Positions 6,516 through 35,688 of a stretch of DNA of 41,123 nt are shown here, piece after piece. The notes under the pieces are model-generated. The model saw only the letters and a program-made list of their open reading frames with translations. It was not told where the DNA came from and did not search any database. Every line of letters begins with the position of its first letter. Positions within the stretch are counted from its first letter, which is position 1. Source of the stretch: a virus (taxonomy: Duplodnaviria; Heunggongvirae; Uroviricota; Caudoviricetes); the IMG/VR virus record IMGVR_UViG_2565956719_000013. One strand, given 5' to 3'. The translations under genes and the position numbers were made by a program.

Positions 6516-6619
6516 GTTAAATCTCCAGATAGTCGCAGCACCCGTTGCGCCGCATATCTGGTTATTCTATTACCTGAAAAACCACATATGGATAGAAAGA
6601 CTGTAAATACGAATAGATA

Positions 6620-6634
6620 TTACCTTTCAGGTAA
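6620..6634. promoter_or_regulatory. operator-like dyad TTACC-N5-GGTAA
   Basis: ATTACCtttcaGGTAAT, perfect dyad between tailspike start (6515) and SOS-box gene. Confidence 0.55.
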
Positions 6635-6671
6635 TTTGCAAAACGTGCTGGATAGCAAACAAATTATTTGC

Positions 6672-6691
6672 TACTGTATAAATATACAGTT
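6672..6691 (+). promoter_or_regulatory. LexA (SOS) box
   Basis: TACTGTATAAATATACAGTT; CTGT-N8-ACAG core at 6674-6689, ~20 bp upstream of ATG 6711. Confidence 0.7.
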
Positions 6692-6710
6692 ATTGCATGG
6701 AGAAGATAAG

Positions 6711-6968
6711 ATGCAGCAGTATCACTATCCACTGGAAGACGGATTTACCGAAAGGATTCACACGCCGGGAGGCGTCAGGTCACTGGTGGAGGGATCGCAC
6801 TTGATGAAATTACTCCGGGATCTCGATAAGGATGGATTTAATGTCGATGGCCCACTTGCCGAACTGACTGCACTGATTAACTACGTCACCAGCTCACAGA
6901 TGTCTATGCAGGATCTGCAAACACATCTCGACTATTGTGCCGAACAATTACGAAAACAAACCAGATAA
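6711..6968 (+). CDS. SOS-regulated small protein, paralog of antirepressor C-terminal domain (candidate antirepressor)
   Basis: GGAGAAG RBS; 85 aa; ~35-40% identical by eye to C-terminal ~80 aa of the 7284..7994 product (shared GV, LM-LL, DG, AELT, QTH positions). Confidence 0.6.
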   Translation: MQQYHYPLEDGFTERIHTPGGVRSLVEGSHLMKLLRDLDKDGFNVDGPLAELTALINYVTSSQMSMQDLQTHLDYCAEQLRKQTR

Positions 6969-6999
6969 GATTTGAAATTACCAATAGGAGTGCTTATAT

Positions 7000-7014
7000 T
7001 TACCTTTGCGGTAA
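7000..7014. promoter_or_regulatory. operator-like dyad TTACC-N5-GGTAA
   Basis: TTTACCtttgcGGTAAA, perfect dyad upstream of antirepressor leader. Confidence 0.55.
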
Positions 7015-7104
7015 ATTTACATCGCACTCCTCTTGTGCCATAGTAATCGGGCACTGGCAAAATCCAGTGCCGGGATTGGCGTCCCGGGTTACTAAGTGGC
7101 GCAT

Positions 7105-7127
7105 ACCACGCCAGACGTGGTTTTTTT
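7105..7127 (+). terminator. intrinsic terminator/attenuator in antirepressor leader
   Basis: stem ACCACG (7105-7110) / CGTGGT (7116-7121), loop CCAGA, T7 tract to 7127. Confidence 0.55.
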
Positions 7128-7283
7128 ATGCGTTAAGCACAGCTATATCCGAATTATGGTGGGCTGGGCAGGGGTCCGAAAGGACGCCGGTACCACTTAG
7201 GCCGGTACGCCAACCTTGTCCAGTTCACCACCAGTAATTGGCGTTGCGGTGGTGATTAAAATCACTAAGTGGAGATAACCACC

Positions 7284-7994
7284 ATGGCTAATGCTCAAAC
7301 TGCCATCTTCAAATTTGAATCTGTTAACCCTATCCGTTCCATCATTATCGATGGCCAACCATGGTTTGTAGCCCAAGACGTTTGTAGTGCGCTGCGTATC
7401 CAAAACGTCACCCAAGCACTTGAAAAACTGGATGATGATGAAAGGTCTATGTTCAACATAGGGCATGAACATCGTGCAATTTTTGACAGCCGAGTAAAAG
7501 AGATCAACATTATCTCCGAGTCAGGCCTCTACACACTGATCCTCCGCTGCCGCGACGCAGTGACACCAGGCACTATCCCCTACCGCTTTCGTAAATGGGT
7601 TACAGGTGAGGTTCTTCCTCAGATCCGCCGCACCGGAAGTTACATTAAAAACTCGCTCCCGCAGGAAGAACGCATAAAGATGGTTGCCGACCAGGTAGCC
7701 AACGCCACGGCGTCAGCAGTAATGCAGGCGATGAAGATAGAGAACAAAACCTACAGTGCCCCACTGAAGCCCGGCTACCGTAGCCTGATTCATTCGCCGT
7801 CTGGTGTTCTCGGCCTGACGGAGAACTCACTGCTGATGAATCTGCTGAACCAGTTACAGGACGACGGGCACGACGTATCGGGCGCGGCGGCGGAGCTGAC
7901 CACCATGTTCTGCTACATCGTCGGTGTGAGCAAATGCCTGCGTGATATCCAGACCCACGCGGAGTACATCAACGACAAGGCAGGGTTCTTCTGA
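7284..7994 (+). CDS. antirepressor with N-terminal Bro-N domain
   Basis: ATG 7284 with AAGTGGAG RBS; N-terminus FKFESVNPIRSIIIDGQPWFVAQDVCSAL matches Bro-N pattern; C-terminal domain paralogous to 6711..6968 product. Confidence 0.7.
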   Translation: MANAQTAIFKFESVNPIRSIIIDGQPWFVAQDVCSALRIQNVTQALEKLDDDERSMFNIGHEHRAIFDSRVKEINIISESGLYTLILRCRDAVTPGTIPYRFRKWVTGEVLPQIRRTGSYIKNSLPQEERIKMVADQVANATASAVMQAMKIENKTYSAPLKPGYRSLIHSPSGVLGLTENSLLMNLLNQLQDDGHDVSGAAAELTTMFCYIVGVSKCLRDIQTHAEYINDKAGFF

Positions 7995-8065
7995 CGGCGG
8001 CGGCACAGGGACGTGCCTTTAAATAATTCTGTACAGATTGCAGACTGGGGGTGAATAGCGTACTA

Positions 8066-8080
8066 TTACCTCAAGGGTAA
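8066..8080. promoter_or_regulatory. operator-like dyad TTACC-N5-GGTAA
   Basis: ATTACCtcaagGGTAAG, perfect dyad ~60 bp upstream of ATG 8140. Confidence 0.55.
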
Positions 8081-8139
8081 GAAAGCATTTTTAATCTTCC
8101 CTTCAAAACGCGTCCTGTAGCCAAACATGGGAGGACGAA

Positions 8140-8772
8140 ATGAGAACAAATACAACAAGAAAAGCGATGCCATACATTATCCCAGAAGCAGATTTCGATA
8201 GAAAACTGAACATGTCTGAGAAGAACACTAGTCACACCGAAAGCTACTTAGCGAAAGGTGTGGTTGATTTCGTTCTTCCGGGATTCACAACACCTTATGG
8301 TTATCGCCTTGTAAAATCTTGTAATGGCGATCATTACAGAATGATTACTACCAGCGATACTCCAGAAACGGTGTATGCGGTTAAGTTAATCTTTCGGGAA
8401 GATATCGTCGAAGCCAAAAGAACATGTACGCAGATCATGGTATGGCGTACGCCTAATGTTATTCATGACCGTGCTGTTCATGGTTTGCCTCAGATTTTTT
8501 TTCAGTTCTTCCTAGAGCAATATGCGATCGTTGTATCTGATGAGCAACAAACAATCGATGGGAGAAGATTCTGGGAAAGAATGATTTCTTGGGCTATAAA
8601 CACCCCGGGATATAATGTATACGTTTCAGATGGCTCTGAAGAAGATAGACCTCTTAGCTTCATGACATCATGGGATGATTTCTATAGCCAGTGGGCTGAT
8701 TTCTGTTGGGGCAGTGATAAAGATGTGCATACCCACAGACTACTGGTTATAAGCAAAGATAAACTGCATTAA
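8140..8772 (+). CDS. hypothetical protein, 210 aa, orphan accessory gene
   Basis: GGGAGGA RBS; own upstream dyad and downstream terminator; no motif recognised. Confidence 0.65.
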   Translation: MRTNTTRKAMPYIIPEADFDRKLNMSEKNTSHTESYLAKGVVDFVLPGFTTPYGYRLVKSCNGDHYRMITTSDTPETVYAVKLIFREDIVEAKRTCTQIMVWRTPNVIHDRAVHGLPQIFFQFFLEQYAIVVSDEQQTIDGRRFWERMISWAINTPGYNVYVSDGSEEDRPLSFMTSWDDFYSQWADFCWGSDKDVHTHRLLVISKDKLH

Positions 8773-9055: not shown

Positions 9056-9067
9056 GTGACATGTCAC
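9056..9067. repeat. 12-bp palindrome GTGACATGTCAC (copy 2)
   Basis: perfect palindrome overlapping TGA stop (9064-9066) of 9064..9360, 1 bp from terminator hairpin. Confidence 0.9.
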
Positions 9068-9360
9068 GTTCCTTTTCTGAATGATAGCCGTTCGAAAAAT
9101 GATGACATTCCACCGCAGACAATAGCAAAGATGATCCCACCAAAGAAGAGAAGGCCAGCCTGCCACCACTCCCACCGCCATACATCCACAGCACCAACCA
9201 TACCAACAATCGCTCCAACAAATGGAATATAGCTCACGATGAAAGCAATGGGGGCTGCAATTATCCAGTGCAATCCCCACCATGATTCAAGCCCAGCCAT
9301 AATTGCTGCCAACTGAAAAAGGCCAACGACGATATAAACAATGAATCCTATCGCTTGCAT
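9064..9360 (-). CDS. small multi-pass membrane protein, hypothetical
   Basis: AGGTGA RBS; 98 aa, 3-4 hydrophobic helices, Trp-rich; last gene of late operon. Confidence 0.55.
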   Translation of the reverse strand: MQAIGFIVYIVVGLFQLAAIMAGLESWWGLHWIIAAPIAFIVSYIPFVGAIVGMVGAVDVWRWEWWQAGLLFFGGIIFAIVCGGMSSFFERLSFRKGT

Positions 9361-25327: not shown

Positions 25328-25534
25328 TTACTGACCAAGCAGCGTTTTACCGCTGGTATTAGCGGTTGATGTGTCACCCTGAGAACCGGTAAGCAGCGTA
25401 GAACTACGACCAGCAGCAGCGCGACGGCGACGAGTTTCTTCGTCGCGGGCATCAACAACGGCGGCATCCTGCTCCTGTGGTGCTGCCTGAACTTCTGGTG
25501 TTGCAGGCACTGACGGTGAGCTACCCATGCACAT
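25328..25534 (-). CDS. small hypothetical protein
   Basis: ATG 25534 with GGAG RBS in a 14-nt initiation region almost identical to the portal one (CGGAGTCATTGA(A/T)ATG). Confidence 0.4.
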   Translation of the reverse strand: MCMGSSPSVPATPEVQAAPQEQDAAVVDARDEETRRRRAAAGRSSTLLTGSQGDTSTANTSGKTLLGQ

Positions 25535-25624
25535 ATCAATGACTCCGTACGCAATTAAATTATTACCAATTTAACCACATATGATTTATTTATCGTAGAT
25601 AGTTGACATTTAACGCACGAATTA

Positions 25625-25639
25625 TTACCTTTCAGGTAA
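25625..25639. promoter_or_regulatory. operator-like dyad TTACC-N5-GGTAA
   Basis: ATTACCtttcaGGTAAG, ~90 bp upstream of the portal-operon first ORF. Confidence 0.55.
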
Positions 25640-25961
25640 GCAAATGGTTCATTCCGGTTATTAACCTGACTGGCTTGTCGTTAAATTGAACAGGTGGAGT
25701 GAGCTTTTATTTTGAGCAGTACGGCGTATGGCACATGCGCCGATAGCGGTCTGGATACGTTTAAGGGGCACCCTCCCTTGCTCGGGCAAACGAACCAGGT
25801 AGCCGGAATGTGCAAGTCGAGCGGTTTTATTCCGCGCACGGGGATTCACCATCCCGGCGATTCGGTGTGACGCCTCGGAAGAGACGAGGGTACAACGATG
25901 AGAGCATTTATGGAGCCGCGACAAAGTGTGGTGCCTTAACAGGCTAAGTGCTCTCAGCGTT

Positions 25962-26038
25962 GTGGCATTAGCTCAGTCGGACAGAGCAACCGCCTTCTAA
26001 GCGGTTGGTCGCAGGTTCGAATCCTGCATGCCACGCCA
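25962..26038 (+). tRNA. tRNA-Arg (anticodon UCU)
   Basis: 77 nt; acceptor stem GTGGCAT/ATGCCAC, anticodon stem ACCGC/GCGGT with loop CTTCTAA, T-arm GCAGG-TTCGAAT-CCTGC, discriminator G, CCA encoded. Confidence 0.85.
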
Positions 26039-26617: not shown

Positions 26618-26629
26618 GTGACATATCAC
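26618..26629. repeat. near-palindrome GTGACATATCAC (copy 3, one mismatch)
   Basis: 5 bp after Gp49-like stop and 4 bp before terminator hairpin. Confidence 0.8.
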
Positions 26630-26703: not shown

Positions 26704-28179
26704 TTAAGCATAGGGATCGTAATCTGTAATGGCCCTTCCCTGCTGGCTTTGCTGTCCTGGTATATTTATGCGTTTCGAGACCGGGAAAGCAAACGTCAGC
26801 AGTAGCGCATCGCCTTTACCCGGCGAACGCCCAAGCCGCTCCTTGATATCTTCCTTCGGTTCGATAACGATTTTACCGTCCACTCGAACTTTGTACTCTG
26901 CCGCCGACAGGTCGTCCGCTGTTTCCTGGTCATCCAGCATGCCGCCCAGCCTCAGCCATGTCTTGCATGAGTTGAACATCTCCCCACGCTTGTTGAGCAT
27001 CTGCGGGTCAGTAGACGCGCCACCGAACGGAACAAGTTGCCATGTACGACCCCAGCCGTCACCGATTGACTTCAAACCGGTTCCGTAACCGAAGTCGATG
27101 AACACCGCGTCAGCCTGATACTGGTCTTCAAAGTCAGCGATACGCTTCGCCATAATCAGATCGTCGGTAGTCTTGTTGCCAGTCCACAGCACCTTACTGT
27201 GTAGCCCCTGCCGCAGGTATATCACCGCGTCATCAACGCCTGAATATGCCGGGTCAACACCGATTATCACCGGAGCATGTGCCACCTGCGCAGCGGTTAC
27301 CACCCGTTTCATTGCCTCGTCAGTAAGACCGGTAGGGATAAACTGCAATTCAGATGCATCAGGGAATATGCCACGCACACGGATTTTAACGAAGTCGCTA
27401 TCTTCCCCGTAGTCATCAACCCATTTCTGCAACTGCTGTTTGTTGGTGCCTTCCACCGTCCTGCTGTCAATCTGCGCAGTTTTCCAGCGGTGTTTGTATT
27501 TGCGGAAACATTCACGGAAACGCCCGGTGTTACGTGTAGGGTTTCCGAAAGCCACCCAGATAATCTCAGTGTCTTCGTCCGTTAGCGCACCCTCGGCAAC
27601 TTCCCACACCAGATCCGCAATGTTCGACGCTTCATCAAATACCACGATGATGCGTTTACGCTCGTTGTGTAGTCCGGCGAATGCCTCAGTGTTGTGCTCA
27701 GACCAGGGGATTGCGTCAGCTCGCCACCGCTTGTCGTGCCCAGGGTCATTGCTGTACATCGCGGTAGCGGTACAGGTAAACCAGTCTTTCGTGATAGCAA
27801 GGTTTGACCACTTGATAATTTCCGGCCAGGTCTTCGTTCGTAGCTGGTTGTCGGTGTTGGCGGTCACCACGACCTTACAATCCTCGCAAGTGGACATGCC
27901 CCAGTTGATCAGCATTGAGATGAATGCGGATTTACCAATACCGTGACCAGAAGCACGTGCCAGCATAAGCGGCTGATATCGCGTCTCTGGATTCTGCAGG
28001 TGATCACGTATCTCTCGGAACGCATCAGCCTGCCACTGACGTGGGCCGGTGGCATGTGCCAGTTCAGTCCCCTCTTCCCCCCATGGGAACGCATAGAGGG
28101 CATAGCCAAGCGGATCGTGAGTGAACCCTGCAATATCCTCGATTAACTGCTCTTCAGGAGATAACGCTGTATCTGTCAC
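26704..28179 (-). CDS. terminase large subunit
   Basis: 491 aa; Walker A-like ARASGHGIGKS and Walker B-like IIVVFDEAS; ATGA overlap with small subunit. Confidence 0.85.
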   Translation of the reverse strand: MTDTALSPEEQLIEDIAGFTHDPLGYALYAFPWGEEGTELAHATGPRQWQADAFREIRDHLQNPETRYQPLMLARASGHGIGKSAFISMLINWGMSTCEDCKVVVTANTDNQLRTKTWPEIIKWSNLAITKDWFTCTATAMYSNDPGHDKRWRADAIPWSEHNTEAFAGLHNERKRIIVVFDEASNIADLVWEVAEGALTDEDTEIIWVAFGNPTRNTGRFRECFRKYKHRWKTAQIDSRTVEGTNKQQLQKWVDDYGEDSDFVKIRVRGIFPDASELQFIPTGLTDEAMKRVVTAAQVAHAPVIIGVDPAYSGVDDAVIYLRQGLHSKVLWTGNKTTDDLIMAKRIADFEDQYQADAVFIDFGYGTGLKSIGDGWGRTWQLVPFGGASTDPQMLNKRGEMFNSCKTWLRLGGMLDDQETADDLSAAEYKVRVDGKIVIEPKEDIKERLGRSPGKGDALLLTFAFPVSKRINIPGQQSQQGRAITDYDPYA

Positions 28180-28775
28180 TGATTGCCATCCTGACGTTCT
28201 TTCAGTCTCTTCCTGGCTGCCGCTATGCGATCAGCAATTGTCACATTCACATTAACATCCAGGCGTTCTTTGAATGCGTTGACGTCGACGTGCTTACCAA
28301 TCAGTTCGAGGTTCTTCACCTTGTCAGGCCATTTAATTTTTTTGAGGATGCCAACCAGCTCTTTCTCGTCTCCACGGCCTTCGAACATGTCGGCCAGTTC
28401 GAAACCTGTCAGGTACTGCCGCCAGACCTTAGGCCATTCCGAGACCGGCTTGATGCTCATATCGTCGTTGAGAATGTCAATCACGTCCATCTGGTCGATC
28501 TCCACCAGGCGCATGAGAACGTAATCAGCACTGACGCGCATTCGTTTGTTGCGCTCCTCCATCAACTCGGCAATCCGTTTTTGAATGCGTTCATCGCGCA
28601 TCATGACACTGGCTTTAACTGCCGCTGTATTTGGGGAGAATCCTGCGTTAATCGCTGCCTGAGTCTGGTTTTCAGGCGTTTTGATGTATGACTGGCAATA
28701 AGCCTCCTGCATTGCTGTTAGTGGCTTAAATTGCGTTGATTTGCGTTTATAGGTTTTAGGTTCAGCAGGCATCAT
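28176..28775 (-). CDS. terminase small subunit
   Basis: start moved to ATGATG 28775-28770 (MMPAEPK...); immediately upstream of large terminase. Confidence 0.65.
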   Translation of the reverse strand: MMPAEPKTYKRKSTQFKPLTAMQEAYCQSYIKTPENQTQAAINAGFSPNTAAVKASVMMRDERIQKRIAELMEERNKRMRVSADYVLMRLVEIDQMDVIDILNDDMSIKPVSEWPKVWRQYLTGFELADMFEGRGDEKELVGILKKIKWPDKVKNLELIGKHVDVNAFKERLDVNVNVTIADRIAAARKRLKERQDGNQ

Positions 28776-28782
28776 AACCACC

Positions 28783-28814
28783 GTGGTAATAGTTACCGTT
28801 GTGGTAATAGTACC
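28783..28814. repeat. two direct copies of GTGGTAATAGT(T)ACC upstream of terS
   Basis: 28783-28797 and 28801-28814; each is a GGTAA-N3/4-TACC inverted arrangement. Confidence 0.8.
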
Positions 28815-28818
28815 ATGC

Positions 28819-28844
28819 AAAATAAAGCCGCCATAGTTGGCGGC
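28819..28844 (-). terminator. intrinsic terminator immediately upstream of terS
   Basis: GCCGCC (28827-28832) / GGCGGC (28839-28844), loop ATAGTT; minus-strand T-tract UUUAUUUU (28826-28819). Confidence 0.6.
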
Positions 28845-28885
28845 AGTATTCAAAACCCATCAAATTCATCATGCATAATCTACTC

Positions 28886-28897
28886 GTGACATGTCAC
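28886..28897. repeat. 12-bp palindrome GTGACATGTCAC (copy 1)
   Basis: perfect palindrome overlapping TGA stop (28894-28896) of the Cys-rich gene, 41 bp before terminator. Confidence 0.9.
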
Positions 28898-29232
28898 ACT
28901 ATTAATTTCGTTTCATGCCAGCCTTTAGTCACCCAGCATTGCGAGTCACCATTACACGGGCATGAATTAACGGGAACTCTCTCGCCGCACTTACCGCAAA
29001 GTTTTCTGCTGATCGATTTTATACGCCCGCGCACACGTGCATCATCCTGGCGGATCAGCAGCGCGATGTACTCGGCCATTTCATAGGGATCGCGACCAGG
29101 GCGCCGGGCGGCGCAGTTCCGCTCAAGCATTTCAATTTCCTGAGCATCAAGCACAATCTCCAGCTTACGCACACCAGATGCAGCTTGTCTGGCTCTCTGA
29201 GCGGCTTTGCGCTCTGCTGCTGATTTAGCCAT
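28894..29232 (-). CDS. basic protein with C-terminal Cys cluster (zinc-finger-like); candidate regulator
   Basis: ATG 29232 (ORF-track start 29235 is TTG); Arg/Ala-rich N-terminus, CGKCGERVPVNSCPCNGDSQC; last gene before terS. Confidence 0.5.
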   Translation of the reverse strand: MAKSAAERKAAQRARQAASGVRKLEIVLDAQEIEMLERNCAARRPGRDPYEMAEYIALLIRQDDARVRGRIKSISRKLCGKCGERVPVNSCPCNGDSQCWVTKGWHETKLIV

Positions 29233-29506
29233 CAATATTTACCTTTATCGCGAACACCTTTACCGGTTTATCGCCGAAGTGCGGATGTGTGATTGTCTTG
29301 ATTTCATATCCGTCATACGGGACGTCAATTCTGCGGCTGGAATCGTCGCGCTTCGGATATCCCTTTGTGATAATCAGGCGGTCATACTCGCGGAACATAA
29401 TTCGCTTATTCCAGTAGTCATTACACAGGCGATACTCTTCCGTTTTCTCTCCGCGAATCATGGCATCGAAGTATTCACCTTTAACGGCAAGTTGCAGGTT
29501 AGCCAC
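29225..29506 (-). CDS. small protein, possibly ASCH/PUA-like fold
   Basis: GTG start 29506 with strong AAGGAGGAAGG RBS; 93 aa; family assignment tentative. Confidence 0.4.
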   Translation of the reverse strand: MANLQLAVKGEYFDAMIRGEKTEEYRLCNDYWNKRIMFREYDRLIITKGYPKRDDSSRRIDVPYDGYEIKTITHPHFGDKPVKVFAIKVNIDG

Positions 29507-29822
29507 GACCTTCCTCCTTTGGCTTGTGAATTTGTATCGTCATGCCGCTTTGAGTGGTGACTACAACGACAGAACCAGGCTGAAGACTGTTAAGATTGAA
29601 TGCTTCGTAAAACGAAGCCAAGGCCAGCGCTTTTTTATTCTTTCGGTTCCACCAACGCCATCCATTGCTACAGGCTACACTGACAATCCACTGCCCACTC
29701 CTGTAAGCCATATAAAACCAGATGAGCAAAACCTGAATGAATGCTATCCAGTCAATAATCGTATATTTCGCGAAGGAGTCCATCACTTCACCTCCTGTCG
29801 TATATTTCGCGAAGGAGTCCAT
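29499..29822 (-). CDS. small membrane protein; N-terminus spans a 39-bp tandem duplication
   Basis: ATG 29822 overlaps DUF551 stop (TGATG); identical RBS+ATG recurs 39 bp downstream at 29783; one TM helix. Confidence 0.45.
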   Translation of the reverse strand: MDSFAKYTTGGEVMDSFAKYTIIDWIAFIQVLLIWFYMAYRSGQWIVSVACSNGWRWWNRKNKKALALASFYEAFNLNSLQPGSVVVVTTQSGMTIQIHKPKEEGRG

Positions 29823-29836
29823 CACTTCACCTCCTG
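29759..29836. repeat. perfect 39-bp tandem duplication (2 copies)
   Basis: TCGTATATTTCGCGAAGGAGTCCATCACTTCACCTCCTG at 29759-29797 and 29798-29836. Confidence 0.9.
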
Positions 29837-30580
29837 CGGCGGTTCTGGTAGCGGCATCCAGAACAAGGCGTTCCCTAACCACGATAAAGTGCCGTCGCTC
29901 AACTCCACGTATTCCCCTTGTACCTGTCCTGCCATATACTCGCCGTGCTTTGAATAAATTAAAATCCAATCATCTTGAGGGGGCATTCGCTCACTACAGC
30001 TTATCCAACCATCCGGAGTTACCGGAGAGTTGCCAGCCAGTCTACGCAAAACAGCCTTAACAGCCTCAATACGGTCATCATCGCAATTTTCCAGCGTATC
30101 TATGCGGTCGAGCATGATGATGGCGTTATCAATATCAGGATTGCCAGTCCACTCATTACCGCGATTGGATTCGGCAGCCTGGTTGCCAGATGCTGGCTGA
30201 TTGTCGGCTTGGCTATAGCTAACAGCACGGCAGGCATCCTCTACGCCTTTAACTGCATCTGCACAGTAGTTATAGCGATTGCATTCCACTAACTTCTGCT
30301 TGAGATTTTCAATTGCTTGCGCGACATCAGCCTGTATTACGGGAACGGGGGGAGCGGCGTATACTTCAATTGTCCCATTATCAATAGGCCACTCTCCATC
30401 CTTGATGTAGTCACTTGTACCGTCAACTTGCTGTTCTGCAATGTGGAATGCACCTATTGGTTTTGTCTCAAGCGATGCCAGTGCAATTCGTGCCACTTCC
30501 ATTTGTTCGCCACGGGTAAGCCCGTTATCAAGCGGATTTTTAATGAATAATTCGATACGTTCTTTGGTAATAGTGGTCAT
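29822..30580 (-). CDS. DUF551-domain protein
   Basis: AAGGTGA RBS; C-terminal WISCSERMP...FWMPLPEPP matches DUF551 pattern from memory. Confidence 0.6.
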   Translation of the reverse strand: MTTITKERIELFIKNPLDNGLTRGEQMEVARIALASLETKPIGAFHIAEQQVDGTSDYIKDGEWPIDNGTIEVYAAPPVPVIQADVAQAIENLKQKLVECNRYNYCADAVKGVEDACRAVSYSQADNQPASGNQAAESNRGNEWTGNPDIDNAIIMLDRIDTLENCDDDRIEAVKAVLRRLAGNSPVTPDGWISCSERMPPQDDWILIYSKHGEYMAGQVQGEYVELSDGTLSWLGNALFWMPLPEPPQEVK

Positions 30581-32158: not shown

Positions 32159-32503
32159 TCAGAACTCTTCGATGTTCCAGCCACCACCTGCTTTCTTTGG
32201 CTTAACCGTTACCCCGATGATTCGGAACGGATACTGATCTGCGGCGACTTTGGTTTTCACCCTGGCGTCGTCGGTCCAGAAACCTTTCACTTCGTGCAGT
32301 TCCATCTCGCCGGTGGCGAGCATCACAGCGAAATCTGGCGTATAGAACGTGTTGTCAGCTAACCGCAGCTTGATACCCTCGAATCGATACCAGGCGATTT
32401 CCCCTGCACGTTTACGCAGCTCAAGGTGCTGGCAATACGCAGATTCAGTTTTGTTCATCTGGCCTGTTTTGAGTCGACCAAGAGCCTGTATCTGTTTTCT
32501 CAT
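32159..32503 (-). CDS. DUF1064-like phage protein
   Basis: 114 aa; pattern QHLELRKRAGEIAWYRFEGIKL recalled for DUF1064; RBS lies inside the dyad at 32507. Confidence 0.5.
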   Translation of the reverse strand: MRKQIQALGRLKTGQMNKTESAYCQHLELRKRAGEIAWYRFEGIKLRLADNTFYTPDFAVMLATGEMELHEVKGFWTDDARVKTKVAADQYPFRIIGVTVKPKKAGGGWNIEEF

Positions 32504-32506
32504 GAT

Positions 32507-32620: not shown

Positions 32621-33421
32621 TTACTTGATAAATCCTGCCGCCTTTCCCCGCCTGTACTCCTCCATCAGCCACTGCGCCGGTGTTATTCCACCAAGGGTGG
32701 CGGCGTTAGGCATGCACCCGAAACTTCGCCCTGGTGGATGGTAAACGTCTCTCCCTGTGTCCGGAGGTGTACTCATGGGCTCTGGCTTTGCCTGTATGCT
32801 GATCACCGGATCGGGTATCTGCTGTCCCGAAGCCACCTTTTTCGCCCAATCATCGAGCAGCCTGCGCGCGTGTTTCTCAACCTCAATCTCGCTAAGCTGG
32901 CGCTGATACATTGCACGGCGGGTATCACATACGACCCAGTACATAACCGGATGCCGCCACGGGAATCTTTCGGGACCACCAGGATATAAACTTTTTTCCT
33001 TGCTGTACCGGTGAAACTCCGCCATCACATCGTCAATGGTGACGCCAAGAACCATCTTGCTGTCTTTGCACCACTTGATAAATTGCCCTGGAGACGGCCA
33101 GAACGGAGATTCACTGGCGCGGGCGTGGCGCATACCAGCAGAAACCTGTTCACGGGTTCGGATCCCCCCTTCGGCAAACGCAGCAATCCACTGCTGTTTT
33201 GCAGCAACTTCCTGCTCTGGCGTCTTCAGGTTGGTTACCACTGCCGCCGGAAACAGTTGTTTCAGCTGTTTAAAAAGGGCATCAACAAGCCTCTCTGCTG
33301 ACATGTTCACCACATTGTCATTGTTGACGTACTGATGCTCATAACCTGACATGCGAGAAAGGGCTTCTCCGTCACGGTTTTGTATCGCGGTAAAAACGTT
33401 GTTCACAAGAAATCCTCCCAT
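32621..33421 (-). CDS. replication protein P-like (helicase loader)
   Basis: QEVAAKQQWIAAFAEGGIRTREQVSAGMRHARASESPFWPSPGQFIKWCKD closely parallels lambda P as recalled; true start may be an internal ATG (33352). Confidence 0.7.
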   Translation of the reverse strand: MGGFLVNNVFTAIQNRDGEALSRMSGYEHQYVNNDNVVNMSAERLVDALFKQLKQLFPAAVVTNLKTPEQEVAAKQQWIAAFAEGGIRTREQVSAGMRHARASESPFWPSPGQFIKWCKDSKMVLGVTIDDVMAEFHRYSKEKSLYPGGPERFPWRHPVMYWVVCDTRRAMYQRQLSEIEVEKHARRLLDDWAKKVASGQQIPDPVISIQAKPEPMSTPPDTGRDVYHPPGRSFGCMPNAATLGGITPAQWLMEEYRRGKAAGFIK

Positions 33422-34218
33422 GCTTCAGGGCTGTTCCAGTGCGGAACGTTGTTATCAGGTAATGTTGATTGCTTCTGTCTGCTAATCTGCAGCCGCCTTG
33501 CCAGCTTCTGCTCCCACTGTGCCTGATGGTATGCCTTACCCTCAGCCATCCAGTAAATTCTGAACTCTGCAAGTTCCTGTGCCGTTGGCAGACTGTCCAG
33601 GTAGATCCCCTGCAATGAGCTTTTCCGAAGAAAGTCATCTGATGGCTGCCATTGTTCATGCATGACAAATTTGCCTAATTGCCCTGGCCCACCAGGAGGA
33701 ACAAAGTTATTCATCACGGCGTTGTTTGCGCCGGGGTCATGAGGCACAGAATCCCCGCTTTTTGTCCTGCTCTCCCTCTCTTGGTTAAATGACTGGTTAT
33801 ATGACTGGTTCTGGATCCCGTTTTTGGGATCATTCAACATCCCGTTTTTGGGATCATTCAACATCCCGTTTTTGGGTATATTCCCATTTTCGGTAACATT
33901 ACCGTTTTCGGGTTCATTACCCCCTTCCCGGTTGCCTTTAATGTTCCCGTTTTTGGTTATATTAAGAGAGAAAACCCGCACTCTTTTCGTCGCTCCCTTT
34001 CTCTCTCCGGTATCTGAAATAAGCCCCATTTTCATGAGCGATATAAGCCCGGCCTGCACGGTTTTTTTATTCAGGCAAGTGTCTTTAACGAGGCGTTCTA
34101 TGCTGGGGTAGCAGAGGTTATATTCATCGGCTCTGTCAGCCATCGAGAGCAGTATGAGCTTTAATGACGAGCTACCTGGATCTGTCTCCCAGGCCCAATC
34201 TGTTGCATGTCTGCTCAT
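33403..34218 (-). CDS. replication initiator, O-like, with origin iterons inside the gene
   Basis: GGAGAT RBS; N-terminal HTH-like region; central NG(N/M)-repeat peptide encoded by DNA iterons. Confidence 0.6.
   Translation of the reverse strand: MSRHATDWAWETDPGSSSLKLILLSMADRADEYNLCYPSIERLVKDTCLNKKTVQAGLISLMKMGLISDTGERKGATKRVRVFSLNITKNGNIKGNREGGNEPENGNVTENGNIPKNGMLNDPKNGMLNDPKNGIQNQSYNQSFNQERESRTKSGDSVPHDPGANNAVMNNFVPPGGPGQLGKFVMHEQWQPSDDFLRKSSLQGIYLDSLPTAQELAEFRIYWMAEGKAYHQAQWEQKLARRLQISRQKQSTLPDNNVPHWNSPEAWEDFL
33815..33959. repeat. origin-like iteron array
   Basis: ATCCCGTTTTTGGGAT at 33815, 33839, 33863 (24-bp spacing) plus degenerate copies at 33881, ~33899, 33944; adjacent ATGACTGGTT x2 at 33789-33810. 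Confidence 0.6.
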
Positions 34219-34969: not shown

Positions 34970-35554
34970 ATGAAAAGTATCCAGGACGTCCGCAGGCAAA
35001 ATCTCAACGACTTGATCGACCGTGAATTCAATGGTGTTCAGACGCGGATGGCAGAAAAACTTGGAACTCAGGCAAATCTGGTAAACCGCTGGGCTCTTGG
35101 CAAGAAGGTTATCGGCGACCAGGTTGCGCGAAAAATTGAAGCTGCCGCCAATAAACCCCGTAACTGGCTTGATATTGATCGCTCGCTTTCTCAGGAGGGT
35201 TTTCAGCCTGTCGGCCCGAGCGATATAGGTCAGCTGGCGGCTCACAACCTGGAACGCTGGATGAGCGAAAGCCGCGACCTTTCAACGCAGGGAAAACTAC
35301 ACCGCGCATCCGGCGTCGCCCAGGTGACAATCAGCCGCCTGTTAAACAATGAGGTCAGCGTTTCCATTTCCACCCTGGAGAATGTTGCATCCGCATTCGG
35401 GCGTCACGGCTATGAACTACTGATTCACCCGCACGACCCTGCGACTATCAACTATGACCGCTCACGCTACGCATTGTTACCCGAAACCGAGAAAGCAAAG
35501 ATCGAAAGTTACATTGAATTTGTCATCAACCAGAACGAAAAAAACAAACAATAA
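34970..35554 (+). CDS. CI-like repressor with two HTH domains, no S24 peptidase domain
   Basis: 194 aa; HTH-like segments QTRMAEKLGTQANLVNRW and SGVAQVTISRLLNNEVSVSISTLENVASAF; no Ser-Lys protease region; poor RBS; 7-codon upstream mini-ORF ends in ATGA at the start. Confidence 0.65.
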   Translation: MKSIQDVRRQNLNDLIDREFNGVQTRMAEKLGTQANLVNRWALGKKVIGDQVARKIEAAANKPRNWLDIDRSLSQEGFQPVGPSDIGQLAAHNLERWMSESRDLSTQGKLHRASGVAQVTISRLLNNEVSVSISTLENVASAFGRHGYELLIHPHDPATINYDRSRYALLPETEKAKIESYIEFVINQNEKNKQ

Positions 35555-35626: not shown

Positions 35627-35673
35627 TTTTTTTAACTCATATCTATTGACATCAAACCAAATACGCATAATTA

Positions 35674-35688
35674 TTACCTCAACGGTAA
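35674..35688. promoter_or_regulatory. operator-like dyad TTACC-N5-GGTAA at early rightward promoter
   Basis: ATTACCtcaacGGTAAC; TTGACA at 35646-35651 upstream; ~20 bp before ATG 35708. Confidence 0.55.

Follow-up and report, generated by a model that had tools for sequence, protein, structure and literature searches.

A Putative Repressor-Controlled Promoter of the Terminase Operon in an Epsilon15-Like Prophage of Escherichia coli

Introduction

For the Uetakevirus phage epsilon15, the GenBank record (AY150271.2) annotates a protein_bind site labelled "repressor" at positions 12–27, before the terminase small subunit gene terS (coding sequence from 47), and places a rho-independent terminator at its far end. 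Here we analyze the corresponding region of IMG/VR record IMGVR_UViG_2565956719_000013, a 41,123-nucleotide stretch of Caudoviricetes DNA (hereafter, the window), focusing on positions 28,776–28,897 just upstream of terS. An earlier note, made from the sequence alone, had placed here a control region composed of a terminator and two 14-bp direct repeats. The view of this region as a control region is borne out. At the same position and with the same sequence, epsilon15 carries a hairpin with a T-run, TGTTACT-ATTACCAAAACGGTAAT, a weaker second site and the terS ATG.

For Salmonella phage SPC32H the published work, as far as it is cited in two later papers (PMC9638917; PMC9986798), concerns the structure of the repressor Rep and its removal by the antirepressor Ant. 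In both, Rep is described, with citation of the SPC32H structure, as a tetramer binding palindromic sites, and in one of the two its tetramerization domain is likened to those of DNA-looping regulators. In phage ZX5, overexpression of the repressor lowered the endolysin and holin transcripts by 99.97–99.99% (PMC9782041), in keeping with global control by Rep; the same paper reports no mapped operators and no terS promoter.

The window is an epsilon15/phiV10-like (Uetakevirus) prophage of Escherichia coli. The 1.5 kb around the site are 100% identical to a fragment of "Escherichia phage Phi05_2388 B" and about 93% identical to vB_EcoP_PAS61, TL-2011b, ZX5 and the O157 typing phages (for vB_EcoP_ZX5, 93% over the aligning part of the region), with farther matches in phiV10, Tyrion, SPN1S, SPC32H and epsilon15. 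The identical 261 bp of the site are present in 503 of 5426 complete E. coli genomes (about 9%). We consider it fairly probable that in these prophages the terminator ends the early-right operon, while a separate promoter, under direct repression by Rep at two operators, O1 and O2, serves terS-terL.

Two Abutting Predicted Repressor Operators Precede terS

The minus strand is the coding strand of every gene around the terS junction. Along it follow the gene of a Cys-cluster protein, the palindrome GTGACATGTCAC, an 8-codon open reading frame (ORF), a hairpin with a T-run, the operators and the terS ATG at 28772. The leader up to this codon reads GCA-TG-G-TACTAT-TACCACAACGGTAAC-T-ATTACCACGGTGGTTAT-G-ATG. 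Two copies of GTGGTAATAGT(T)ACC, reported in the earlier note between the terminator and terS, are present: GTGGTAATAGT occurs at 28783–28793 and 28801–28811 (18 bp from start to start), and the complete copies are GTGGTAATAGTTACC (28783–28797) and GTGGTAATAGTACC (28801–28814). Operator half-sites do occur inside these repeats. The 14-mer is, however, not the functional unit, as each copy straddles the junction of neighbouring 17-bp palindromic operators. Their half-sites appeared to be "in inverted order" because the 14-mer consists of the right half of one operator, the linker and the left half of the next, an out-of-register reading of abutting palindromes. Judged by sequence, the real units are two palindromes ATTACC-N5-GGTAAT lying one base apart, namely operator O1, ATTACCACAACGGTAAC (28792..28808, minus strand), and operator O2, ATTACCACGGTGGTTAT (28774..28790, minus strand), each with one mismatch to the consensus. 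A "third half-site" farther upstream, GGTAC, lies outside any operator.

The consensus ATTACC-N5-GGTAAT was derived from the seven annotated repressor sites of epsilon15 (AY150271.2). Allowing one mismatch, the window contains 10 sites, compared with 0.08 expected, and none of 100 shuffled sequences reached 10; allowing two mismatches, it contains 14 sites, compared with 0.96 expected. The motif is found in both orientations and at promoters. Besides O1 and O2, sites are located at the early-left promoter (35611, and 35673, which abuts TTGACA-17-AATTAT), in the PR/PRM region (34899), at a mid-operon promoter (32506 and 32568), upstream of the portal operon (25624) and in the anti-repressor/tailspike region (6619 and 8065). 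Across genera, the operators before the portal operon, located 2.9–4.3 kb beyond the terS ATG, are just as well conserved. In the SPC32H genome the motif recurs at the corresponding syntenic positions, the one upstream of terS among them.

The genome also codes for the matching repressor. The product of the gene at 34970..35554 (plus strand) is a full-length homolog of SPC32H Rep (PDB 5D50, E = 4e-42, residues 1–190) with an HTH_3 domain, and it is expected from sequence homology to bind both O1 and O2. Both sites have the sequence features of Uetakevirus Rep operators: they are 17-bp palindromes, share their motif with the immunity promoters, keep their position in relatives and combine constrained half-sites with a free spacer. 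Operators 17 bp apart also abut each other in the PR/PRM regions of epsilon15 (33340 and 33357) and SPC32H (34389 and 34406); a tandem pair is therefore normal for this repressor.

Repeats in this place could also serve as recognition sites of TerS, either pac or cosB-like. Their location directly before terS and the several phage records that begin here or nearby would fit such a role, and both the R sites of lambda cosB and the pac boxes of SPP1 are repeats adjoining the terS gene. However, pac or cosB sites would be unique, whereas this motif has ten copies over the genome, the best of them in the immunity region, and such dispersal excludes TerS recognition repeats. The starts of the records differ among phages, some lying just after a stop codon or terminator, and for this reason look like an annotation convention. 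A role in TerS recognition is thus extremely improbable.

The operator pairs 32506–32522/32568–32584 and 35611–35627/35673–35689 have exactly the same 62-bp spacing; the former frames the mid-operon promoter TCGATA-16-TAAAAT and the latter the early-left promoter. The operator at 32506 overlies the ribosome-binding site of a DUF1064/resolvase-like gene (32503..32159). Rep operator-like sites at 6619, 6999 and 8065 flank anti-repressor genes located within 6588–8772 (plus strand), between the tail genes and the tailspike gene; the product of 7269–7994 is Ant-like and that of 6588–6968 is related to the C-terminal part of Ant. The position of these sites suggests that Rep may also control its own antirepressor region.

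Conservation of the Operators

The leaders of terS were compared in 12 aligned sequenced phages, in 22 distinct haplotypes from 80 viral contigs and in prophages of ten enterobacterial genera, the prophage set comprising Citrobacter, Klebsiella, Pseudescherichia, Pseudocitrobacter, Scandinavium, "Ca. Erwinia dacicola," Superficieibacter, Kluyvera, Buttiauxella and a second Citrobacter species. O1, whose homologue in epsilon15 is the annotated repressor site, lies 27 nt (Kluyvera) or 36–38 nt upstream of the terS ATG across the ten genera. In an alignment of 20 diverse leaders the mean entropy of its half-sites is 0.12, compared with 1.06 at free positions, defined as the N5 spacer, the linker, the "n" of TGn and positions 3–4 of the -10 hexamer (permutation p = 3e-5). 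In the E. coli-type leaders among the 80 viral contigs the four half-sites never vary. Variation is found in the spacers, the linker, the "n" and -10 positions 3–4, as well as at single bases before the TG and behind O2.

O2 overlies the terS Shine-Dalgarno sequence GGTGG (28778–28782) and ends 1 nt before the ATG; the operator at 32506 is similarly placed over a ribosome-binding site. With one mismatch, O2 is found in the E. coli group, in BUCT554 and in Erwinia dacicola, the gap to O1 being 3 bp instead of 1 in the last two, and with two mismatches it is found in epsilon15, P. vulneris and Buttiauxella. In Buttiauxella it lacks GGTGG, yet it has a perfect GGTAAT half. From its sequence, O2 looks like an auxiliary site.

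Two palindromes over a translation start may act in RNA instead of DNA, the leader hairpin hiding the Shine-Dalgarno sequence and AUG of terS in read-through transcripts. The leader 28818..28760 does fold with -20.7 kcal/mol (z = -3.8), pairing both elements, but this fold follows automatically from two adjacent palindromes. Among relatives, structures and energies differ (from -10 to -25 kcal/mol), and the consensus structure reaches no more than -4.3 kcal/mol, its covariation term being 0.09; the O1 palindrome alone is shared, without compensatory changes. Besides, the motif occurs at promoters and in either orientation. We consider such an RNA switch very unlikely.

A Putative Extended -10 Promoter Is Fused to the First Operator

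A putative extended -10 element, TGgTACTAT (28807..28815, minus strand), recognized by its conservation, is located at the upstream edge of O1, with the TG at 28814–28815 and the hexamer at 28807–28812. The predicted transcription start lies near 28800. The -10 hexamer and O1 overlap by 2 bp, exactly as the early-left promoter TTGACA-17-AATTAT (35646–35674) overlaps the operator at 35673, so that O1 would be centred on the expected start.

The pattern TG-n-TA-n-n-AT is fused to O1 in every leader, in the form of TGGTACTAT, TGTTACTAT, TGATACTAT, TGGTATTAT, TGATAGTAT, TGTTAGTAT or TGTTACAAT. TG.TA..AT is invariant in 35 of 35 distinct leaders and corresponds to the TGn plus hexamer of a sigma-70 extended -10 element. 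In the 20-leader alignment the TG and TA have zero entropy, while the "n" and hexamer positions 3–4 are variable. O1 and TGnTAnnAT are retained even in the Klebsiella and Enterobacter phages, BUCT554 and the Erwinia prophage, despite the absence of the terminator there. Such conservation is the signature of a candidate extended -10 promoter overlapped by a protein-binding palindrome.

The operators could instead act mainly as a roadblock, in the manner of "stoperators," with Rep at O1 and O2 halting polymerases that have escaped termination, with no promoter at all and with terS expressed by regulated read-through. Consistent with this, O1 and O2 separate the terminator from the first late gene, about ten places carry Rep sites, including those before the portal operon and the tailspike gene, and no -35 hexamer is present. 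The repressor of mycobacteriophage L5 silences the genome through dispersed sites within transcription units. A roadblock alone, however, leaves unexplained the invariant TG and TA, which lie upstream of O1 and outside the operator in ten genera. Nor do they simply flank operators in general, as TGNTANNATTACC has a single occurrence in the window. The geometry of the site is also identical to that of a strong bona fide promoter. A pure roadblock therefore appears rather unlikely.

Several points weigh against a promoter of terS that is repressed by Rep. No -35 hexamer is recognizable, the -35 position falling in the terminator stem, and the standard promoter scan made no call on the extended -10 element. 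Without this hexamer the promoter stays putative, resting on conservation and on analogy, and a weak promoter of this kind could still need an activator. The conservation itself is confounded, in that the last two bases of the -10 hexamer double as operator bases. O2 is decayed in the Klebsiella phages, and where it is conserved, the Shine-Dalgarno sequence could be part of the reason. Lastly, no heteroimmune relative is found among the 80 viral contigs and the prophages of ten genera (10-kb flanks); as all relatives use ATTACC-N5-GGTAAT, co-variation of operator and repressor lends no support.

The Terminator of the Early-Right Operon

The intrinsic terminator of the early-right operon (28819..28844, minus strand) consists of a stem-loop at 28827–28844 and a T-run at 28819–28826, reading GCCGCCAACTATGGCGGC and then TTTATTTT from 28844 to 28819. 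According to the terminator scan, its stem has seven pairs, six of them G-C, and a loop of four. The RNA fold has -14.5 kcal/mol (z = -5.3), which none of 200 shuffled sequences equalled. The element thus has the G+C-rich hairpin, the directly following U-run and the location after the last early gene that characterize Rho-independent terminators. The homologous hairpin is labelled as rho-independent terminator in the epsilon15 record and is kept in most relatives. The terminator pointed out in the earlier note is genuine and closes the early-right operon about 45 bp before terS, the distance from the end of the T-run to the terS ATG being 46 nt.

The terminator upstream of terS is missing in the Klebsiella and Enterobacter phages, BUCT554 and the Erwinia prophage. 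In the Klebsiella phages, BUCT554 and the Erwinia prophage the upstream neighbour is a different (UmuD-like) gene, which ends just before the terS leader; the Enterobacter phages likewise have another gene upstream.

A promoter-like sequence, GTGACA-18-CATGAT (28897..28868), was also considered and rejected: with a score of 9 of 12, it would direct transcription into the terminator, and what serves as its -35 hexamer is merely the palindrome GTGACATGTCAC. An Rfam scan of the junction revealed no known antiterminator RNA and no match above threshold. A sub-threshold match to rseX (RF01401), an Hfq-binding small RNA, spans 28820–28905 (minus strand) and covers the palindrome, the mini-ORF and the terminator; with 27.8 bits against a gathering threshold of 50 (E = 0.12–0.33), it is probably driven by the terminator and AU-rich sequence.

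The gene downstream, terS (28176..28772, minus strand), codes for the terminase small subunit, as identified by Pfam (Terminase_2), PHROGs and homology, and is followed by terL (28179..26704, minus strand). Its start is set by homology at ATG 28772 (MPAEPK...), while the ORF list had TTG 28853. The long form starting with TTG was rejected because its frame would run through the terminator and because aligned homologs keep the MP..PK start and the Shine-Dalgarno sequence; some database records annotate the longer form.

Model of terS-terL Control

According to the preferred reading, early-right transcription would stop at the intrinsic terminator 28819–28844, and a small sigma-70 extended -10 promoter just downstream would start the terS-terL packaging operon, with O1 centred on the predicted start and O2 located over the terS ribosome-binding site. 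With a Rep tetramer on both sites, RNA polymerase would be blocked at the terS promoter of the lysogen, and polymerase leaking past the terminator would probably be stopped as well. Once the antirepressor removes Rep, the packaging genes would be turned on directly, without a dedicated late activator or antiterminator. We infer the occupancy of the sites by Rep, the activity of the promoter, the position of its start and the roadblock effect from the elements described above.

The Cys-Cluster Protein and the Question of Activation

The last early-right gene (28894..29232, minus strand) encodes a basic protein of 112 amino acids with a C-terminal Cys cluster, similar to epsilon15 gp49 and N15 gp46. 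In line with the Cys cluster noticed earlier, the Cys residues at positions 40, 79, 82, 91, 93 and 99 are invariant. The family, phrog_536, carries the label "transcriptional regulator" in PHROGs. Sequence and profile searches of Pfam, NCBIfam and the PDB gave no match. The AlphaFold2 model is poor (mean pLDDT 61), and in a Foldseek comparison of this model with the PDB there was no match with E below 4.8. There are 776 homologs; among the 120 matches listed, all those named by their source are called "hypothetical protein" or "phage protein." Vibrio phages have homologs, and so does the N15-like phage phiKO2, a phage that also encodes a Q-like antiterminator. The genes surrounding the homolog in phiKO2 and in one Vibrio phage favour no particular function. 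A ribbon-helix-helix fold, suspected from the sequence pattern, was confirmed by nothing and was dropped.

The earlier note had proposed that late expression probably depends on antitermination or on an activator acting at the repeats, to which the adjacent gene might contribute. In that case an activator or antiterminator, perhaps the Cys-cluster protein, would act there, and most terS expression would come from transcripts that pass the terminator. Some features fit: the putative promoter lacks a -35 hexamer, so that an activator is conceivable; the Cys-cluster gene is the last early gene, has the family label just mentioned and ends in a conserved palindrome; and in the lineage of the window the terminator could be leaky, as the stop codon of the mini-ORF is 5 nt ahead of its stem. 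We found no evidence for such a mechanism at the repeats themselves, which match the operators of the lysogeny repressor and are indistinguishable from those of the immunity region. Because they lie over and downstream of the conserved extended -10 element, their position is a repressing, not an activating one, unlike that expected for activator-dependent late promoters of the P2 Ogr or Mu C type, where a site common to all late promoters would lie upstream of the -35 hexamer and be bound by a zinc-finger activator; on the protein side, the Cys-cluster protein matches no known regulator family and has no detectable DNA- or RNA-binding family. No Q- or N-like antiterminator was recognized by PHROGs among the early and left-operon proteins scanned, and with the sub-threshold rseX match as the only Rfam result the case does not resemble lambda-type Q/N antitermination. 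Moreover, the Klebsiella and Enterobacter relatives keep the operator and the -10 element without having a terminator to antiterminate, and phiKO2 has a Cys-cluster homolog in addition to its Q-like antiterminator. All this makes activation or antitermination at the repeats unlikely, and the Rep-repressed promoter remains the reading that we prefer.

A Conserved Palindrome and a Mini-ORF at the Operon Boundary

The perfect 12-bp palindrome GTGACATGTCAC (28886..28897) contains the TGA stop codon of the Cys-cluster gene. In the window it occurs exactly at 28886–28897 and 9056–9067, and with one mismatch at 26618–26629. The first two each provide the TGA for a gene that ends an operon (the Cys-cluster gene and ORF 9360..9064, respectively), the third lies just past terL, and a strong hairpin follows every copy within 60 nt. 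The palindrome is a genus-wide feature. Epsilon15 and SPC32H have GTGACATGTCAC at the three syntenic positions. All ten genera have it where the Cys-cluster gene ends, and it clearly supplies the TGA in 8 of 10 genome loci, even with another gene between it and terS; a second copy just past terL is present in 7 of 10 loci.

Between the palindrome and the terminator, the window, unlike epsilon15, carries a possibly translated 8-codon mini-ORF, MHDEFDGF* (28850..28876, minus strand). A G-rich, Shine-Dalgarno-like run lies upstream. The start, stop and length of the mini-ORF (M-x-DEFDGF-stop) are kept in 42 loci of five genera (Escherichia, Klebsiella, Scandinavium, Superficieibacter and Buttiauxella), and in codons 3–8 about 6 of 9 substitutions are synonymous by our own count. 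Other relatives have at this location an 85-amino-acid gene to whose C-terminal end the mini-ORF is homologous; the epsilon15 type lacks the mini-ORF. Because its stop codon lies so close to the terminator stem, a terminating ribosome could hinder formation of the hairpin.

Conceivably, the palindrome and the mini-ORF form a previously undescribed operon-boundary device in addition to the terminator and the operators, in which the extent of read-through to the following module could be set, for example, by a protein, perhaps the Cys-cluster protein, or by a ribosome that terminates there. In lysogens, Rep at O1 and O2 would then be a backstop. We judge a device of this kind to be decidedly unlikely.

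Other Features of the Genome

Before the gp3/portal operon (~25520–25610, minus strand), downstream of the Rep operator 25624–25640, there is a non-coding block of about 70 nt that is almost invariant in 12 phages and in prophages of many genera. It has the pattern …GTCAA…CTACG…AAATAA…TGGTTAAATTGGTAATAATTTAAT…GGAG and holds an inverted repeat, TTAAATT-N6-AATTTAA, together with a TGGTAATAAT element resembling the extended -10 element of terS. Between the packaging and portal operons lies a tRNA-Arg gene with anticodon TCT (25962–26038, plus strand); SPC32H has a tRNA-Arg gene at the syntenic place.

The replication-initiator gene (34218..33403) contains a tandem direct repeat TGGGATCATTCAACATCCCGTTTTTGGG with a 24-bp period (33825–33868, plus strand), encoding the peptide PKNGMLND. 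By analogy with lambda O, the TGGGATCATTCAACATCCCGTTTTTGGG repeats may be origin iterons inside the initiator gene. A short tandem duplication at ~29740–29850, among overlapping unassigned ORFs, gives repeated peptides in several frames (for example, GGEVMDSFAKYT twice in ORF 29969..29499).

Significance and Comparison with Known Systems

The analysis assigns a concrete predicted function to a conspicuous repeat of a prophage family present in about 9% of complete E. coli genomes. It suggests that epsilon15/phiV10-like phages silence the packaging operon directly with the lysogeny repressor, unlike phages with a late cascade of the lambda style; the conserved sites before the portal operon and the tailspike gene indicate that the same may hold for those units. 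Deletion of the repeats should de-repress terminase. In phage engineering, for instance of phiV10 or SPC32H reporter phages, the terS promoter and operators could be a compact cassette that is off in the lysogen and on after induction.

The terminator and the O1 site are already known from the annotation of epsilon15 AY150271.2, where O1 is the only one of the two operators to be annotated; the region analyzed here represents the counterpart in the E. coli lineage. New here are the better second operator (O2 has one mismatch in the window, compared with two in epsilon15), the putative promoter element and the conservation of the module across the genus. Since the core was already annotated, the gain is a refinement and not a discovery. 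As in the Rep/Ant switch of SPC32H, the window combines a Rep homolog with anti-repressor genes.

In mycobacteriophage L5, many "stoperators" of gp71, spread through the genome and into its late region, silence the entire prophage; these sites are asymmetric, orientation-dependent and act on elongating polymerase. The sites in the window, by contrast, are palindromic, number about ten and are located at the starts of operons. Closer parallels are offered by the CI and C2 operators of lambda and P22, which are likewise 17-bp palindromes arranged in tandem over the -10 element and start of a lytic promoter and are bound cooperatively by an oligomeric repressor. In lambda, the repressor acts on the early promoters only, and the late genes are controlled via Q antitermination, whereas in the window operators stand directly before the packaging, portal and tailspike units and no Q-like gene was recognized among the scanned proteins. 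Overall, the arrangement upstream of terS is that of a classical repressor–operator–promoter module like OL and OR of lambda and P22, but placed on a late packaging operon.

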